Origin: a virus
Length of the DNA: 64,000 bases
IMG/VR virus record: IMGVR_UViG_3300000103_000003
Location: 11,643 to 75,642 of that record
Strand: one strand, 5' to 3'
Below, one piece after another: positions 11,106 to 62,691 of this stretch. Below the pieces are notes generated by a model that was given only the letters and a program-made list of their open reading frames with translations, was not told the origin of the DNA and ran no database searches. The stretch's first letter is position 1; every line of letters begins with the position of its first letter. Both the position numbers and the translations under genes were made by a program.

Positions 11106-11292
11106 ATTGCATTTTTTGAGCCATGCCAACGTTTATCATTTCTGCATGAAGCCAGTCAGCATCATTTATCATTCGTGCAAGTTCTTCATCGTCTAATTCG
11201 TTTATATTTATGGCTGGAAAATAATACCGGACTAAAATTAATTTTTTCCGTAATATTTCTGTTTCACTTATTCTCCAGCCTTTTATAAATTT
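11104..11292 (-). CDS. -1 frame extension of the tail assembly chaperone (gpGT-like C-terminus)
   Basis: Open frame FIKGWRISETEILRKKL...MAQKMQ with no start of its own; entered through the A_AAT_TTA slippery site. Confidence 0.75.
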   Translation of the reverse strand, partial: KFIKGWRISETEILRKKLILVRYYFPAININELDDEELARMINDADWLHAEMINVGMAQKMQ

Positions 11293-11633
11293 ACAAGAGT
11301 AGATTGACGAGAGCCGATAATAGCGTGTACTTGTGCCATTGTTCCATACAAAAATACAGAATCGTCGTCGATAAGTTCTTTGTCGCCATCCAAGAAACAT
11401 TCCTGTGCCAATACTTTCACAGCTTGCACCGCATCTTTTGCAGACATAGTCATATACTTAGAGAACGCCGGAAGTGCTGGTTGTGCAAAGTACCCTATGT
11501 ACAATTCTTTTTCGTCGCCTTCTTCTCCAAAAACTACAATAGGGAATACCCTACGGCATTTTTTCGCTTCTTTAATTTTCGCTGCTTTTGCTTTAATTTC
11601 TTCTAATTGCTTTAGACTTAATTCTTTTTCCAT
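11283..11633 (-). CDS. Tail assembly chaperone (gpG-like)
   Basis: 116 aa between tail tube and tape measure; ends in a slippery heptamer. Confidence 0.85.
   Translation of the reverse strand: MEKELSLKQLEEIKAKAAKIKEAKKCRRVFPIVVFGEEGDEKELYIGYFAQPALPAFSKYMTMSAKDAVQAVKVLAQECFLDGDKELIDDDSVFLYGTMAQVHAIIGSRQSTLVNL
11286..11292 (-). other. Programmed -1 ribosomal frameshift site A_AAT_TTA
   Basis: In-frame X_XXY_YYZ heptamer directly before the TAA stop. Confidence 0.75.
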
Positions 11634-11670
11634 GTCGTTTTGTGTTTAAAAATTATTAATAATTACTCAT

Positions 11671-11703
11671 TTAAGAATAGGTATTTCCCACATAAAAAGT
11701 TTA
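11671..11703 (-). promoter_or_regulatory. Putative phage late promoter for the chaperone
   Basis: TAAACTTT-N15-CTATTCTTAA downstream of the tube terminator. Confidence 0.7.
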
Positions 11704-11710
11704 TAAAAAT

Positions 11711-11742
11711 AAAAAAGGAGAAGCGTTTTAAACTTCTCCTTT
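11711..11742 (-). terminator. Intrinsic terminator after tail tube
   Basis: AAAGGAGAAG-loop-CTTCTCCTTTTTT on the minus strand. Confidence 0.8.
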
Positions 11743-11750
11743 ATATGATA

Positions 11751-12203
11751 TTAAAGTATCGAACTTGCATCAATCGGCTCAATAGCACCCGGATTCAATG
11801 GAATCTCGGATACAAGGTTTGTGTCGTCTTGATTAGCGTCCAACCCGTCTTCACTAAAAATACACCTACGAAGAGCCGTAGTGATAGTTTTACCATCTTC
11901 TGGGTGATTGTATGCTATAATCAAATCAAACTCACCTAAGCCCTCCAAAGTGCCATCAGGAGACAGCCTCTGTAAAGTAACCTGTGCATTATAATCTAAT
12001 GAGATAGAAGCAGTTGGAGTTATATTACCAAATCCACGTGATTGCGGATGTGCGCCTACACCATAATTCATTTCAATTTTTCTGGAACGGTTCCACTTAA
12101 TCGCTTGAATACCCATGATAGGTTCACCAACAATATTGGAGAACTGAAACTCAATCATAGACCAGTCATAAGCACGACCATTAATAAGAGTTGTATTTGC
12201 CAT
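11751..12203 (-). CDS. Tail tube protein
   Basis: 150 aa, LINGRAYDWSMIE start, RGFGNITPTASISL; follows the sheath. Confidence 0.85.
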   Translation of the reverse strand: MANTTLINGRAYDWSMIEFQFSNIVGEPIMGIQAIKWNRSRKIEMNYGVGAHPQSRGFGNITPTASISLDYNAQVTLQRLSPDGTLEGLGEFDLIIAYNHPEDGKTITTALRRCIFSEDGLDANQDDTNLVSEIPLNPGAIEPIDASSIL

Positions 12204-20777: not shown

Positions 20778-20810
20778 ATTTGCGTATGTCGAATATTATT
20801 TGTATATTTG
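20778..20810 (+). promoter_or_regulatory. Bacteroidota primary-sigma promoter
   Basis: TTTG...TATATTTG matching the -33/-7 consensus. Confidence 0.8.
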
Positions 20811-21804: not shown

Positions 21805-22105
21805 TGTAGAATGTTTTAGAACAATGGATGTGGCTACAATCAACAGGCTACACGCTAAAACATTAACACGAATTTTATTGAAAAAAGGCGTTATTAAATG
21901 GGATAATGACAGTTCGGTTTATACTTTAACTGATGAATATAAACCCAGAACTGAAGAATTAACCAGAATGGCAGAATATACCGACAAAAGTCAATGTAAA
22001 AAACCTTATATGGTTTGGACAGAGGCTGGAAGGCAATTAATAAATTCTATTGTCGAAAGTATGACGCAGGAAGAGATTAAGAGTTATTGGTTCAAACAAT
22101 ATTAA
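21791..22105 (+). CDS. KilAC/ANT-like DNA-binding protein
   Basis: LTRILLKKGVI...PYMVWTEAGRQLI winged-helix signature. Confidence 0.7.
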   Translation: MKINDVECFRTMDVATINRLHAKTLTRILLKKGVIKWDNDSSVYTLTDEYKPRTEELTRMAEYTDKSQCKKPYMVWTEAGRQLINSIVESMTQEEIKSYWFKQY

Positions 22106-22122
22106 TTTTTAAAAACAACAAA

Positions 22123-22698
22123 ATGGAAAAGTGGTTTAGAGTAACCGCCAGTCTTCGCGTAGCGTTTGAAGACGGCAAAACAAAAGTGACGAAGAAATCA
22201 ATCTTGATACGTGCGGTATCGCTTACAGAGATTGAATCAGTGGCATTGGAAATTTTCAGAGGCTTTACGGTTTATCCTGAAAGTATTCTAATCGAAGAAG
22301 CTAAAGTACAGGGCATTGAAAAGGTATTGTGTAATCCGAGTTTTAATTGCGTTGAATCTCACGTTATTGGCAAAGCCAAATATATTGAGTTTACATTCAA
22401 TGAAGAATCTTATGATAATATATATGCTGCTAAAGTAGTTTTCTTTGCACTGGATGAAAAATCTGGTAATCTCAAACCAGCATCTAAGGTGGATTACATT
22501 ACTCCGTCGGAATCAATCAAAGACGCAACAGAAGACATCAGAAAGTCTTTGAGTGATTGCGTGACTGATTGGAAAATTCTGGGATGTAAAGAAGTAAATT
22601 ACAGCTCTATTGTGGTTGTTGATTCTTTTGGATTGATGATGCTGGAAGGAGCCGGAATGATTGAAGAAGCAACTTCTATTAAAAACGAAAAGAGATGA
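22123..22698 (+). CDS. DUF4494-like phage protein
   Basis: WFRVTASL..FEDGKTKVTKKSILIRAVSLTEIE and DEKSGNLK...DWKILGCKE; two-repeat architecture. Confidence 0.65.
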   Translation: MEKWFRVTASLRVAFEDGKTKVTKKSILIRAVSLTEIESVALEIFRGFTVYPESILIEEAKVQGIEKVLCNPSFNCVESHVIGKAKYIEFTFNEESYDNIYAAKVVFFALDEKSGNLKPASKVDYITPSESIKDATEDIRKSLSDCVTDWKILGCKEVNYSSIVVVDSFGLMMLEGAGMIEEATSIKNEKR

Positions 22699-24710: not shown

Positions 24711-24759
24711 AAAAAGTGGGGTTGCCGTTTGGTAATTCCACTTTTTTGTTGTATGTTTG
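24711..24759 (+). promoter_or_regulatory. Terminator hairpin overlapping a primary-sigma promoter for ligA
   Basis: Stem AAAAAGTGGGGTTGCC/GGTAATTCCACTTTTT; TTTG 24728 - N20 - TATGTTTG 24752. Confidence 0.7.
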
Positions 24760-27531: not shown

Positions 27532-27579
27532 AAAAGTGATGCGTCCATTTGGATGTGTCACTTTTTTTATGTATATTTG
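27532..27579 (+). promoter_or_regulatory. Terminator hairpin overlapping a primary-sigma promoter for the recombinase operon
   Basis: AAAAGTGATGCGTCCA/TGGATGTGTCACTTTT; TTTG 27548 - N20 - TATATTTG 27572. Confidence 0.7.
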
Positions 27580-27604: not shown

Positions 27605-28198
27605 ATGGCAGCAGTAGATGTATTTACCACAGCAGACTTTATCCCAATGGATGAATTAAAGCGTCTCATTAAGTGTTTGCGTGATGACGAGAACTATAAA
27701 TGGGAATTGTATTTTCGATTAGCTTTTTGTACTGGATTAAGATATTCGGATATAAAGAGAATCAAATGGAGCCACTTATTAAGTGGAGAATCATTTGACA
27801 TTCGAGAAAAGAAAACTGGCAAGCATAGGCATATAACTATTTCAGAAACGAACCAAAAGATTTTTGCAGAGCTACACCAGCTTTTAGGGGCATATCCAGA
27901 TTTCTGGTACGTTATGGCTCCGGAGGCTCGTAATCAGTCAGTTACGGTTCAATACGCGAACCAAAAGTGCAGAGCCTTCAAAAAACTCTATGATATTAAA
28001 ATTGAAAATTTTTCAACTCATAGTGTAAGAAAAGCATTTGCGCGTCATATTTGGGATAGTCGCGGACAAACCGACGCAGCACTGGTAATTATTTCTGAAA
28101 TATTGAATCATGCCAATATAGCAACTACTCGCAAATATCTCGGAATCACCAGTGAAGAGATAAAAGAGATTTACAACACTTTAAATATAGATATATGA
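27605..28198 (+). CDS. Short tyrosine recombinase (catalytic domain only, 197 aa)
   Basis: GLRYSD (R), EKKTGK (K), HSVRK (HxxR), LNH and TRKYL (Y) are all intact. Confidence 0.92.
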   Translation: MAAVDVFTTADFIPMDELKRLIKCLRDDENYKWELYFRLAFCTGLRYSDIKRIKWSHLLSGESFDIREKKTGKHRHITISETNQKIFAELHQLLGAYPDFWYVMAPEARNQSVTVQYANQKCRAFKKLYDIKIENFSTHSVRKAFARHIWDSRGQTDAALVIISEILNHANIATTRKYLGITSEEIKEIYNTLNIDI

Positions 28199-28716
28199 GA
28201 AAATTAAGAAAATTTCAACCTTTTCAAAAGGTTTTAGTAATCACACCAGACGACGAACAAGTTGAAGGTGTAGTCATTAAATCAATCACAATGCCTAATG
28301 ACCGCGATGGCATTGTTTTGTGTGAAGACGGCAGTAAAGTAACCGAACACCAGTATTTAGTAGCGTTACTATTTGAAGACGGTACAATTACTGAAAAACA
28401 CGTTCCTGTTTATGAAGGAGGAATGATTCCAAACGTAAAAACATTTGGAGATGCAATGGATGCTCTCAAATCTGGATATGCCGTTACGCGTTCAAACTGG
28501 ATACCCGGCAAATATTTGTTCCTGTTACCGGGCGCAAAGGTTCCGGCTGACAAATGTTTTACCGAACCTTTGATAAGTATTGCCAAAAAGCAGGGATTTG
28601 TTGAATGTCTCCCAGCCATACGTCTTGTTAGCGGTGTAGAAGTGATGACTGGATATACTCCAACACAAATCGAAATGCTTGATGCAAACTGGAAACTAAT
28701 TCAAAATGCCGTATGA
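28195..28716 (+). CDS. DUF2829 / Tad2-like protein with an extra N-terminal domain
   Basis: C-half TFGDAMDALKSGYAVTRSNW..KYLFL...GYTPTQIEMLDANW matches the family pattern FGxAxxxxKxGxxVxRxxW...WxPxQxDxLAxDW. Confidence 0.75.
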   Translation: MRKLRKFQPFQKVLVITPDDEQVEGVVIKSITMPNDRDGIVLCEDGSKVTEHQYLVALLFEDGTITEKHVPVYEGGMIPNVKTFGDAMDALKSGYAVTRSNWIPGKYLFLLPGAKVPADKCFTEPLISIAKKQGFVECLPAIRLVSGVEVMTGYTPTQIEMLDANWKLIQNAV

Positions 28717-29459
28717 AAATTCAAGGTATCAAATTTACAGAATTACTGACGGTTGATGAATGTCAGCTGTTAAGTCATGTTACTGAATGGCAAGAAGCTA
28801 ACTCGAATCATCAAGTAATAATAGGCGGTTCTCTTGCTTTAAAACTGCAAGGTATTTATTTGAAACGTGAATGTCACGATTTAGACCTGCAAATTCCGGG
28901 TGTTCAACCAAAAGAAATTGGTGAACCAAATGGTTTTAGACTAAAAAACCCAGACGAAGACCTGCCTTCTTGGAATGATAGTGTGTTGTTCTATAAGAAT
29001 GATGCTATAAGTGTCGATGTTCTTTACAATCAAATTCCTGACGAATTTATTAATTCTGTCAATGGTTTATTGGTTGTATCGCCAGCATGGATAGTCGCCA
29101 GCAAGAAATACTACATTATGAATTTCATTAATTACAATGAATTTCTAATGTATCAACTAATTGGTGCTGATAATATTGACTTGCGTTTGGAAATTTTGGC
29201 TAAAGCTGAAATTAATTTGACAGAAAGAGCCAAAAAAGCATTACTTAAACATGTTTTTGATTTACATGTGATGAATAGTATTGTATCGAACACAAACGGT
29301 AAAATATTTCAGTCACTACAATCAGCTGGCTGGAGCCGGGAGGAGCCGACAGGATTCTTATGTATGCCGTGGCAACAATTTGCTGCTTTAAAAGAAACAC
29401 AAGTCAACAATGTTTCTAAAAGAGTAGAAGACAAAGATGATGAATTTCTTCCATTCTAA
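28713..29459 (+). CDS. Pol-beta superfamily nucleotidyltransferase-like protein
   Basis: IIGGSLAL..QG...HDLDL and SVDVL motifs. Confidence 0.7.
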   Translation: MKIQGIKFTELLTVDECQLLSHVTEWQEANSNHQVIIGGSLALKLQGIYLKRECHDLDLQIPGVQPKEIGEPNGFRLKNPDEDLPSWNDSVLFYKNDAISVDVLYNQIPDEFINSVNGLLVVSPAWIVASKKYYIMNFINYNEFLMYQLIGADNIDLRLEILAKAEINLTERAKKALLKHVFDLHVMNSIVSNTNGKIFQSLQSAGWSREEPTGFLCMPWQQFAALKETQVNNVSKRVEDKDDEFLPF

Positions 29460-29692
29460 TGTTGGACGATAGATTAATGTGGCTGTGGGCTATTGAAAAA
29501 TGTCAGGAAAAAATTAATGCAGCTAATAAAATATTGGATGAAGCAGGAGCCTTCGATGTACCGTCAGCCCTGCAAACATTTTTAGAGGATTTCATTAACA
29601 GAATGGAATTACATATAAAAGATTGTCAAGAAAAAATTAAAGAATCAGAAAATGAACGCGACGAGCAACTTAAAAGAGGAATTAATCAATAA
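29459..29692 (+). CDS. Hypothetical coiled-coil protein
   Basis: ORF coupled to its neighbours. Confidence 0.75.
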   Translation: MLDDRLMWLWAIEKCQEKINAANKILDEAGAFDVPSALQTFLEDFINRMELHIKDCQEKIKESENERDEQLKRGINQ

Positions 29693-29693
29693 A

Positions 29694-30047
29694 ATGAGAA
29701 AGAACATGTTTAGCCAACTTTTACTGGATAAACGCTTTCAGTCTTTACATAGACAGTTAAATCATGTTATGAGCTGGGATATAGAGCCGGAATACGCCGC
29801 CATTATTCTTACAGACACCAATATCATTGGTTTGATTTTTCACGAACCTGTATTTGTTGCTCCCAATCAGCCAGATATGGTAGTTACTAAATCTACAATG
29901 GAGTGGCGAGTAGCACCGGATTACATGAACGCGCTTCGGAATATAGAGACTAATCAACAGGATATAAAAACCAAAATAATTAAATGGCTGACGGTTCAGG
30001 CTCCGGCTGTTAATTTAAAAACAATTTTTGAACATTATGACAAATAA
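29694..30047 (+). CDS. Hypothetical protein
   Basis: ORF track 29652..30047; start adjusted. Confidence 0.7.
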   Translation: MRKNMFSQLLLDKRFQSLHRQLNHVMSWDIEPEYAAIILTDTNIIGLIFHEPVFVAPNQPDMVVTKSTMEWRVAPDYMNALRNIETNQQDIKTKIIKWLTVQAPAVNLKTIFEHYDK

Positions 30048-30483
30048 AAATTCTAACATTGCTGTTGTAGACCCTACGAGGCATTTCTATGCAGAAAAAG
30101 ATTTGCTTATAGTAGCGGTTGACTTCGATGGTGTTTTAGTTGATTCGGCGTATCCTAAATTGGGGTTGCCGAAACACGCGTACCATGAGTTATTAAAGGA
30201 ACTCAAAAAAAACGGTTGGTATATTATTCTTTGGACTTGCAGGTCTGGGAATGAACTTGCAGCAGCGATAAATTACTGCTTAGAGTGTAAAATCCCTATT
30301 GACCGCGTAAACGACCACCACCCAGAAATGATGCAGAGATTCGATGGTAAATGCAGCCCTAAAATTCACGCGGATGTGTATATCGACGATAAAAATGCTA
30401 ATGGTTTAGCTTCGGCTGATGATATTTTGGCGTATTGTAATTCACTTCAAGACCAAATACAAAATGGATGCACTTCTAAATAA
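30037..30483 (+). CDS. HAD-superfamily phosphatase
   Basis: VDFDGVL, LWTCR, K..ADVYIDDK motifs. Confidence 0.9.
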   Translation: MTNKNSNIAVVDPTRHFYAEKDLLIVAVDFDGVLVDSAYPKLGLPKHAYHELLKELKKNGWYIILWTCRSGNELAAAINYCLECKIPIDRVNDHHPEMMQRFDGKCSPKIHADVYIDDKNANGLASADDILAYCNSLQDQIQNGCTSK

Positions 30484-30910
30484 GGCTATTGATAGAGTGA
30501 ATAGCTTTTGTAACTTAGTTCACATGTGGGCTAAGAATCAAGGATTCTGGAAGTTACATGATATTGCGGCTTCCAGTAATCAAAAAGGTGGTTTTAAAGC
30601 CATAAAACACGCGCTTATAGCGCAGAAATTGGCTTTAATTTCATCAGAGTGTGCCGAAGCATTGGAGGCTGACCGTAAGGGCTTGTATTGTACTAAGTAT
30701 GATTTAGAAAGTGTTGAACAGGCTCCTGACGCGAATAAAAAAGAAATGTTTGAGCAACATATTAAAAATTCTATTGGTGACGAACTGGCTGATATAATCA
30801 TCAGAACTGGTGACTTAGCCGGATACCTTGAAATAGACCTGCAAAAACATATTGCGCTCAAAATGGAATACAACAACTCTAAACCTCAATGGAATGGCAA
30901 ATCCTATTAA
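30464..30910 (+). CDS. MazG-like all-alpha NTP pyrophosphohydrolase
   Basis: LALISSECAEALEADRK...DELADIIIR..DL...IDL..HIALKMEYN. Confidence 0.85.
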   Translation: MDALLNKAIDRVNSFCNLVHMWAKNQGFWKLHDIAASSNQKGGFKAIKHALIAQKLALISSECAEALEADRKGLYCTKYDLESVEQAPDANKKEMFEQHIKNSIGDELADIIIRTGDLAGYLEIDLQKHIALKMEYNNSKPQWNGKSY

Positions 30911-31295
30911 AAACTTCAAAGACTGTAAGATTTCAGAACAACTCTATATGGTTGTAGGATTAGATATTATAACCGTAACCATTACAGGATTATACAGTCG
31001 TCCTTTTAATACGATAGGTGTTCAGTGTGGAAAGACCATACCAGAATTTGTAGTCAATAAAGACCTTAGTATTGCCAGACAAATAAAAACAGAACTTGGT
31101 GATGATATTTCTGTATGTGTATCAGCTTATGATGCGAAACAATTAAGAATTGAAAATCGTGATAAGTTGTTAAAAGAAATGGAAAGAAAGTTTATCTCCC
31201 AGTTCCGAACATACAAAAAATATACTCCAGAGAAATACGATGCCCTTAAAAGGCGCGTGGAGAAATTGTTTCAAATGGCAGACCGTAGTTTGTAA
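30894..31295 (+). CDS. Hypothetical protein
   Basis: ORF track 30852..31295; start adjusted. Confidence 0.7.
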   Translation: MANPIKNFKDCKISEQLYMVVGLDIITVTITGLYSRPFNTIGVQCGKTIPEFVVNKDLSIARQIKTELGDDISVCVSAYDAKQLRIENRDKLLKEMERKFISQFRTYKKYTPEKYDALKRRVEKLFQMADRSL

Positions 31296-32602: not shown

Positions 32603-32801
32603 TTAATTTGCGTTTTAATTGTAGAATATAATTTGCCACACTCTCAAATGCGCTTCCGGCTCCTATATTGTGACGTTTGATATTTTCATCATCAATATTG
32701 GCATTAATGCGGCTATTTGCCACACTTTGGCTGGAATAACAATAACTTAATAAATCATTTAATATTTCTCGTGGTGTCATTAAAGCGGCTGTTGCGTCCA
32801 T
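32586..32801 (-). CDS. Hypothetical protein
   Basis: ORF track. Confidence 0.65.
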   Translation of the reverse strand: MDATAALMTPREILNDLLSYCYSSQSVANSRINANIDDENIKRHNIGAGSAFESVANYILQLKRKLNEKLL

Positions 32802-33364
32802 GATTGTTGTTTTGTAAATATTTGTTCGTTAATAATGCCCTTTAACTCGAAATATGAAATAGGTCTGAAATTATTATTATCAACTCCAACATCATATTGA
32901 GTAGGGCGCATATTGCATGTATAACTAAGACGATTTTCTGGTGTTGTGTGAATATGACCGAACACTTGCCAGCTTCCTCGGAATGATTGGTTCCATGCTA
33001 TCATTGGATAATGGCAGCAGACGATTTTCTGGTGTTGTGTGACTGTACCTCTGGATTCAATCACATTTATCATCATTATCCGGTCTTCGCCTTTATCGTG
33101 GTTGCCGCCAACACATAATATCTGACCGTTTAATTTCTTAATCATGTTTTGATATTTCTCACTTTCTGGAGAGGCTTTCCATACAAAATCGCCACAATGA
33201 ACAACAAGAGCATTTTTAGGAACCGTTCGATTCCAGTTATCAATAAGAGCCTCGTCCATTTCTATTACATTCGCGAATGGTCTATTACAATGATTGATAA
33301 TGTTCGCGTGATGAAAGTGTGTGTCGGATGTGAAATATACATCCTCTGCTTTTACGTTTATCAT
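32780..33364 (-). CDS. Calcineurin-like metallophosphoesterase
   Basis: SDTHFHH, GDF, GNHD, CHYPM and FGHIH motifs. Confidence 0.92.
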   Translation of the reverse strand: MINVKAEDVYFTSDTHFHHANIINHCNRPFANVIEMDEALIDNWNRTVPKNALVVHCGDFVWKASPESEKYQNMIKKLNGQILCVGGNHDKGEDRIMMINVIESRGTVTQHQKIVCCHYPMIAWNQSFRGSWQVFGHIHTTPENRLSYTCNMRPTQYDVGVDNNNFRPISYFELKGIINEQIFTKQQSWTQQPL

Positions 33365-33958: not shown

Positions 33959-33990
33959 CAAATATACGGAATATTTCGGACATTACCAAA
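33959..33990 (-). promoter_or_regulatory. Bacteroidota primary-sigma promoter
   Basis: TTTG-N20-TATATTTG on the minus strand. Confidence 0.8.
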
Positions 33991-60058: not shown

Positions 60059-60090
60059 CAAATATACAAAAAATATATGATATAGCCAAA
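60059..60090 (-). promoter_or_regulatory. Primary-sigma promoter
   Basis: TTTG-N20-TATATTTG. Confidence 0.8.
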
Positions 60091-62659: not shown

Positions 62660-62691
62660 CAAATATATACATAATATTTGACACCGCCAAA
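62660..62691 (-). promoter_or_regulatory. Primary-sigma promoter
   Basis: TTTG-N20-TATATTTG. Confidence 0.8.

Follow-up and report, generated by a model that had tools for sequence, protein, structure and literature searches.

The DNA considered here is a window of 64,000 nucleotides (nt), positions 11,643 to 75,642 of the IMG/VR virus record IMGVR_UViG_3300000103_000003, and the gene at issue is an open reading frame (ORF) for 173 amino acids (aa), whose product carries a beta-rich N-terminal domain ahead of a C-terminal domain of the Tad2 family, formerly DUF2829. Its ATG overlaps the stop codon of a small tyrosine recombinase gene (ATGA), while its own stop codon overlaps the ATG of a downstream gene, orf248 (again ATGA). 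Because both flanking genes overlap the Tad2-like ORF, it is the middle member of a tightly packed gene string. With a probability of roughly 0.55, we regard its product as a divergent Tad2 of a Bacteroidales myovirus that acts as a sponge for a nucleotide-derived immune signal.

Membership of the Tad2/DUF2829 family is solid. The hidden Markov model (HMM) PF11195 (Tad2-like) aligns to aa 83-168 over nearly its full length (profile positions 2-72 of 73), with E = 1.1e-9 and a score of 39.1 bits where the gathering cutoff is 25; a genome-wide rerun gave 40.2 bits, and two unnamed PHROGs families match the Tad2 part. An alignment of 116 relatives of the protein (A1), used as input for AlphaFold2 and for the column counts given below, yields a profile that matches all solved Tad2s in the PDB at E = 2e-30 to 6e-21. 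The resulting AlphaFold2 model of aa 81-170 has a predicted local distance difference test score (pLDDT) of 95-98, with helices and strands running from H84-92, E96-99 and E106-111 to H158-162 and E166-169. Foldseek searches with this model return only Tad2s below E = 0.1, namely HgmTad2/AcrIIA7, SptTad2, ModTad2 and SPO1 Tad2 (E = 1.6e-7 to 1.9e-4), and VIA-align gives Z scores of 10.2-12.2 to ten Tad2 entries (71-93 aligned residues, root-mean-square deviation (rmsd) 1.3-4.3 Å) as against 5.5 for the best unrelated chain. Among the structures matched by these programs are 8kbi/8kbj, 8wjd, 9eib, 8v3e and 8sme, and the BFVD matches form a list of phage 'Thoeris anti-defense 2-like' proteins. 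Among the ten positions that are near-invariant in the 116 relatives (at least 90%), seven are kept, namely F84, A87, G94, R99, W102, G153 and W166. The initial annotation, made from the letters of the sequence, had assigned the C-terminal roughly 90 aa to DUF2829 and had named a PF11195 match and a structural match as ways of checking this; the HMM score above the gathering threshold and the Z scores to solved Tad2s bear the assignment out.

Tad2 proteins are tetrameric sponges, and the ligands of the family, which fall into at least five classes of signal, comprise glycocyclic ADP-ribose (gcADPR), 3′cADPR, His-ADPR, N7-cADPR, cyclic dinucleotides (cGG and cGAMP) and cUMP or cCMP, which are held in two different pockets. 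The founding gcADPR sponge, the tetrameric SPO1 Tad2 (gp34.65; 8SME/8SMF/8SMG, 8WJE), shares the core fold with the protein from the window (Z 10.2-10.9), but it is only 89 aa long and has a short insertion, no N-terminal domain and conserved pocket residues. The long insertion after β2 that is absent from SPO1 Tad2 is present in HgmTad2/AcrIIA7 (8KBI-8KBM; long form 9KZR) and SptTad2 (8WJD), which have the same fold as our protein, including this insertion between β2 and β5 (Z 11.1-12.2 over 90-93 residues, at about 22% identity). The long form of AcrIIA7 has an N-terminal extension as well, yet that extension is helical and unrelated to the beta-rich one seen here. The best per-residue fit is provided by ModTad2/MoTad2 (9EIB, 8V3E; rmsd 1.3-2.1, Z 11.0-11.2, 27-30% identity), which comes from a prophage of Myroides odoratus and thus likewise from a host among the Bacteroidota. 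In both proteins the pocket aromatic residue is followed by 'TP'; ModTad2 differs, however, in having only a short insertion and no N-terminal domain, and in retaining the pocket Trp together with the GWNGKG lid and the SxSD motif. Its specificity has shifted to His-ADPR and cUMP.

In front of the Tad2 domain, the first 76 codons are truly coding. Their log-likelihood of 0.317 per codon compares with 0.341 ± 0.154 for 76-codon windows of secure genes of the phage, the other five frames of the same stretch have negative scores and three to nine stops each, and only 47 of 20,000 shuffles were free of stops. Both AlphaFold2 runs predict five strands here (aa 10-16, 28-32, 40-43, 52-60 and 65-74), albeit at low confidence: the full-length model has a pLDDT of 40-67, and of the stand-alone models the best reached 67.8 and the other four 40-48. 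The roughly 80 aa of beta-rich sequence that the initial annotation had described ahead of the Tad2 domain are therefore upheld by the coding statistics and, less firmly, by the predicted strands. As modelled, this is a small all-beta domain, a sequence orphan with no confident fold. Searches of aa 1-82 against Pfam and PHROGs at E up to 10 returned chance rows only (CIDE-N at 0.1, phrog_11836 at 0.19), and phmmer against 1.84 billion representatives found no relative of the N-terminal domain apart from a repeat artefact: the match of aa 17-78 to a giant 3,875-aa immunoglobulin-repeat protein (P0007, E = 2.5e-10) sums 13 near-identical repeats worth 2.4-9 bits each. The folds considered for it were the Dec-like OB domain of the '6E3C' partner type and Tudor/SH3-like and PilZ-like barrels. 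With a poor model as the query, the best Foldseek hit to the domain has E = 0.13, and the highest Z that VIA-align gives among 48,161 chains is 3.8, which is under the usual noise level. Rows for PilZ or split barrels lie lower still (Z 2.5-2.9), and there is no PilZ HMM match to the domain or elsewhere in the phage genome. A model from the ESM Atlas gave Tudor/SH3-like leads (template modelling scores 0.59-0.65, feature scores 0.80-0.84) in what is the leads-only range of the tool.

An N-terminal extension is not unusual in Tad2 architecture, because 76 of the 116 relatives in A1 have at least 40 residues ahead of helix α1 and because fusions have been published. These extensions are highly diverse, forming one cluster of 17, a few of two or three and otherwise singletons. 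Both PDB 9KZR and Table S2 of Hadary et al. document a 150-158-aa AcrIIA7 with a helical extension, which showed activity in screens; fused forms of Tad2 are active as well. Tad2 is also often fused to Acb4, whose fold is described as resembling the double-stranded RNA-binding motif (dsRBM), and to PF21825, and it was this fusion logic that led to Sequestin; PF21825 proved to be a sponge, Sequestin being an alpha-helical domain of 60-80 aa (Tal et al.). Tad2 proteins with PF21825 or '6E3C' partner domains were left out by Hadary et al. Like the published fusions (Acb4-Tad2 of Pasteurella phage Pm86, Sequestin/PF21825-Tad2 and those of the '6E3C' type), our protein has a second small domain joined to Tad2, but this partner is predicted to be all-beta and has no HMM match to the published ones. 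Sequestin was rejected as its identity, there being no PF21825 match in aa 1-82 (E up to 10) or in the phage genome (E up to 1) and an all-beta prediction set against a helical domain; Acb4 was rejected likewise, with no match to PF13876 in aa 1-82 or in the phage genome and no predicted helices as opposed to its dsRBM-like alpha/beta fold. The extra domain noted in the initial annotation is thus real, but it belongs to an ordinary architecture, and nothing was found for the extended ligand range or the localization that had been suggested for it.

As a separate observation, the 17 clustered relatives (among them P0081, P0037, P0072, P0089 and P0109; alignment A2) have in common an N-terminal extension of about 60 aa with the pattern M..YIGTK.V.A.PM ... 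GY.V.Y.DGY.SWSP..VFE..Y. This extension matches no Pfam family and no PDB sequence, and by the same guilt-by-fusion logic it can be considered a candidate anti-defence module. Our N-terminal domain does not belong to this commonest class: hmmsearch gave -2.2 bits, below shuffled sequences, and hhalign a probability of 0.3%, with 48 of 200 shuffles scoring as well. A full-length alignment that places YLVALLFEDG...VYE of our protein opposite GYxVxYxDG...VFE over-extends from the Tad2 match into aa 50-82.

Relatives of the protein as a whole are distant. An exhaustive HMMER search of the 1.84 billion representatives recovered 152 proteins at E < 1e-3, all of them through aa ~83-170 and the closest 46% identical over the matched part, whereas a word-based protein search recovered the query alone. 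A pattern search of viral_contigs recovered neither the Tad2-like protein nor the recombinase, the phage records held no near DNA match, and the one tblastn match, from a Vibrio phage, is 34% identical and covers the Tad2 part only. In the accessible portion of the supplement text of Hadary et al., none of the tested homologs has the '(A/E/S)EWC' insertion motif and our protein is not listed.

The contacts that HgmTad2 makes to gcADPR and to cyclic dinucleotides have been defined by crystal structures and mutagenesis (Li et al.), and they were mapped onto the protein through the HMMER alignment to 8kbi, in which chain numbering is that of the paper plus one. The pocket comparison that had been proposed as a check on the initial annotation gave no firm footing to its anti-Thoeris or anti-CBASS reading. 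Of the gcADPR contacts (W21, N22, G23, T82, V84, W87, S90, T92 and D93), which define the gcADPR-binding members rather than the whole Tad2 family with its several ligands, W21 alone is identical (W102). N22 has become I103, T82 E149, V84 M151, W87 Y154, S90 T157, T92 I159 and D93 E160, while G23 is either deleted or replaced by P104, which leaves the lid loop one residue shorter; the changes are conservative at W87, S90 and D93 and non-conservative at N22, G23, T82 and T92. The cyclic-dinucleotide pocket has fared little better, with P32 kept (P112) but R31 changed to L111, D34 to A114, L36 to V116 and N85 to T152; its S47 and F70 fall in the insertion and have no reliable mapping. GWNGKG and the W..S..D motif are present in every solved member, the His-ADPR binder ModTad2 among them. 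Among the relatives in A1, position 103 is Asn in 87 of 115 and Ile in none; Tyr154 occurs in one (Trp in 114), Ile159 in four, Glu160 in four (Asp in 111) and Asn165 in three (Asp in 112). W154->Y, D160->E and D165->N are the three changes at near-invariant positions, none of them seen in more than 4 of 115 relatives. Eight residues are unusual in all; no other relative has more than two of them, and the combination is unique among the 116 sequences. As we read the alignment, an intact scaffold carries a remodelled pocket. Since the pocket is remodelled, gcADPR or cGAMP specificity is not transferable by homology, and the ligand is not readable from the sequence.

The initial annotation had proposed an immune-signal sponge directed against Thoeris or CBASS. 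The family assignment behind this proposal stands, by HMM and by fold, but the target specificity has no firm basis, with the contact residues mostly changed. The exchange of the gcADPR contacts and the unique combination of unusual residues weigh against the sponge reading, as do three further points. The PF11195 score of 39 bits is low beside the 56-84 bits of five relatives; of 84 sponge homologs tested across the Acb2, Tad1 and Tad2 families, 19, about a quarter, failed to inhibit any of seven systems; and on the side of the host, the TIR_2 domains found in 66 of 201 sampled genomes of the order and the SMODS cyclase domains found in 17 were counted as single domains rather than as whole Thoeris or CBASS systems. 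The replaced pocket residues (I103, Y154, E160 and N165), the low PF11195 score and the inactive homologs, together with the standing of the protein as a singleton with no close homolog among the 1.84 billion representatives, would also fit a Tad2-fold protein that is not, or is no longer, an immune-signal sponge, having turned to a host protein or a metabolite or belonging to a drifting gene. We consider this unlikely, though it deserves to be taken seriously: the model shows, with very high confidence, an intact fold and structural core, most of the replacements are chemically conservative (W to Y, D to E, S to T), the ORF has normal coding statistics, and the family stays functional despite much variation in its pockets, as ModTad2 and Tad2_71 illustrate.

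Two other accounts concern the part in front of the Tad2 domain. It might bind ligand itself, as a second module that lets the protein capture more kinds of signal, as in Tad2-Acb4 and Tad2-Sequestin, which would follow the precedent of guilt by fusion with Acb4 and with PF21825, itself a sponge. The N-terminal domain is under coding constraint, and the c-di-GMP-binding PilZ or split barrels do occur among its weakest structural rows. We nevertheless find such a two-module sponge improbable, as the domain matches none of PF21825, PF13876 and PilZ, its predicted all-beta nature is at odds with an alpha-helical Sequestin and a dsRBM-like Acb4, its fold matches lie within noise with one model in five reaching a pLDDT of 68, it has no stand-alone homologs, and the N-terminal extensions of the family are extremely diverse and mostly singletons. 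Alternatively, translation might start at the internal Met77, which lies five residues before α1, would yield a stand-alone Tad2 of 97 aa, a canonical length, and has GGAGGA ahead of it, leaving the upstream 76 codons outside the active protein. This we judge very improbable indeed. The statistics of these codons are typical of coding sequence and no stop interrupts them, the ATGA shared with the gene upstream is in keeping with translational coupling at Met1, two-thirds of the relatives carry N-terminal extensions, and the spacing of 0-1 nt between GGAGGA and Met77 is too short for a Shine-Dalgarno site. Bacteroidales, moreover, do not generally rely on Shine-Dalgarno pairing, which also counts against this start.

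The features of the locus are collected in Table 1.

Table 1. Features of the Tad2-like gene and its surroundings, in window coordinates
Feature	Position	Strand	Remarks
Bacteroides-type promoter consensus (TTTG-N-TAnnTTTG)	27548..27579	+	pattern search; ahead of the recombinase / Tad2-like / orf248 string
Mini tyrosine recombinase	27605..28198	+	197 aa, catalytic domain only; PF00589 E = 2e-17; NCBIfam Xer-like matches
Tad2-like gene	28195..28716	+	173 aa; N-terminal beta-rich domain, linker, Tad2/DUF2829 domain
N-terminal domain, aa 1-76	28195..28422	+	five predicted beta strands; no sequence family
Linker, aa 77-82 (MIPNVK)	28423..28440	+	in-frame Met77; GGAGGA 0-1 nt before Met77; low pLDDT between domains
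Tad2/DUF2829 domain, aa 83-168	28441..28698	+	helix α1, beta sheet, inserted helix/strand region of the long HgmTad2/SptTad2 type
Lid loop W102-I103-P104-G105-K106	28498..28512	+	family W-N-G-K-G (diphosphate-binding N22/G23 of HgmTad2); HMMER alignment to 8kbi
Pocket segment Y154-T-P-T157-Q-I159-E160	28654..28674	+	family W-L-A-S-Q-T-D (HgmTad2 W87, L88, S90, T92, D93)
Downstream gene (orf248)	28713..29459	+	248 aa; no Pfam family

The source record, a virus of 106,694 bp that CheckV rates as about 96% complete, contains genes for a tail sheath, tape measure, portal, prohead protease, terminase, NAD-dependent ligase, dUTPase and thymidylate synthase; the phage is a myovirus of Bacteroidales. 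Since homologs of its capsid protein are found at 57-63% identity in genomes of Alistipes, Bacteroides, Phocaeicola, Segatella, Tannerella and other Bacteroidales, its host is a gut-type Bacteroidales bacterium. Capsid homologs at 59-66% identity also occur in many IMG/VR contigs of about 100-120 kb. The consensus of Bacteroides-type promoters has 14 sites in the window where 4.66 were expected, a number reached by none of 100 shuffles. To judge by its sequence and position, the site ahead of the recombinase probably serves as a promoter, in which case the Tad2-like gene is apparently transcribed together with the mini-recombinase. Early transcription by the host polymerase would fit a role in counter-defence.

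Six of the 14 promoter matches (20779-20810, 24728-24759 and 27548-27579 on the + strand; 33959-33990, 60059-60090 and 62660-62691 on the - strand) have in common an extended form, TTTGG..nTGTC....T.TGTATATTTG, and precede the ligase, the mini-recombinase and other blocks of genes. They look like one class of phage promoter read by the host polymerase.

We class the Tad2-like gene as accessory and place it where a variable region begins, because PF11195 is absent from the relatives of the phage and synteny ends past the conserved recombinase. None of 20 related phage records, 11 of them at least 90% complete, has a PF11195 match above the cutoff, and the single weak match, which scores 13.6 bits in G006, falls in a RuvC-like resolvase frame of about 175 aa and is not an ortholog. 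Three related phages keep the order portal ... dUTPase - ligase - mini-recombinase, with a recombinase that is 38% identical and directly follows the DNA ligase (11252-11797 on the - strand in L123). Downstream of it, these three relatives have no match to window positions 28195-31295, and one carries an unrelated 81-aa ORF, a PIF1-like helicase and YopX instead. The 81-aa ORF that follows the recombinase in G006 was considered as a stand-alone version of the N-terminal domain, but it gave no alignment.

Several neighbouring genes are worth recording in their own right. The mini-recombinase marks the edge of the variable region and may have a part in producing such variation. Between ligase and recombinase lies a Rha/KilAC antirepressor gene (PF09669 + PF03374; 26752-27510, +), which has no match in the 18-kb stretches around the ligase of the three relatives and is therefore another accessory insertion. 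The product of orf248, a gene translationally coupled to the Tad2-like one, has no Pfam family and no relative found in viral_contigs by pattern search; its aa 113-172 form a weak XepA-like stretch (21.9 bits in NCBIfam, where the cutoff is 400; PDB 6i56 at E = 1e-3), and an assignment as a nucleotidyltransferase, suggested by a GGS...DLD motif alone, was dropped for want of support in Pfam, NCBIfam or PDB. Further along the same variable region, a MazG-like match at 30419-30910 (+) stays below threshold (17.6 bits, cutoff 27), and 32780-33364 (-) encodes a calcineurin-like metallophosphoesterase (PF00149, E = 4.4e-9). On the other side, a DUF4494 protein at 22087-22698 (+; PF14902, E = 1.1e-15) adjoins the amidase endolysin.

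The reading we favour, that of a divergent Tad2 sponge, can be spelled out as follows. By analogy with the family, the protein would form a homotetramer through its Tad2 domain, built around helix α1 and with ligand pockets between the protomers, and it would sequester a nucleotide-derived alarm molecule of a host signalling defence and so keep the effector from being activated. The TIR_2 and SMODS domains counted in the host order make signalling defences plausible targets, above all those that use TIR domains. The ADPR-type pocket appears remodelled, with a shorter lid, Ile-Pro in place of Asn-Gly, Tyr for Trp, Ile for Thr and Glu for Asp, and a ligand would for this reason probably be bound in a way other than gcADPR in HgmTad2 or SPO1 Tad2; it may indeed be a different signal. 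The N-terminal domain, joined by MIPNVK just before α1, would lie on the outside of the tetramer and is most likely an accessory or stabilizing appendage. We see a rather slim chance that the remodelled pocket, the orphan N-terminal domain or both capture an as yet unrecognized immune signal of Bacteroidales.

Tad2 sponges are a main route by which phages silence Thoeris, CBASS and Pycsar signalling, and the family, with its thousands of sequences and well-known fusions, is already familiar; what is added here is one more, rather divergent member. Its interest is modest and lies in a unique pocket, which differs from those of every solved member and of all 115 nearest relatives, and in its Bacteroidales setting, the source being a large and little-studied group of gut myoviruses whose hosts have many TIR-domain proteins. 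Should the protein bind nothing, it would mark a limit to what a DUF2829 annotation means. Divergent members of the family have, however, repeatedly revealed new immune signals, and if this one binds a signal, its ligand would show an alarm molecule of gut bacteria. If that signal were new, the protein could be used as bait for it, as Tad1 and ModTad2 were for 3′cADPR and His-ADPR.

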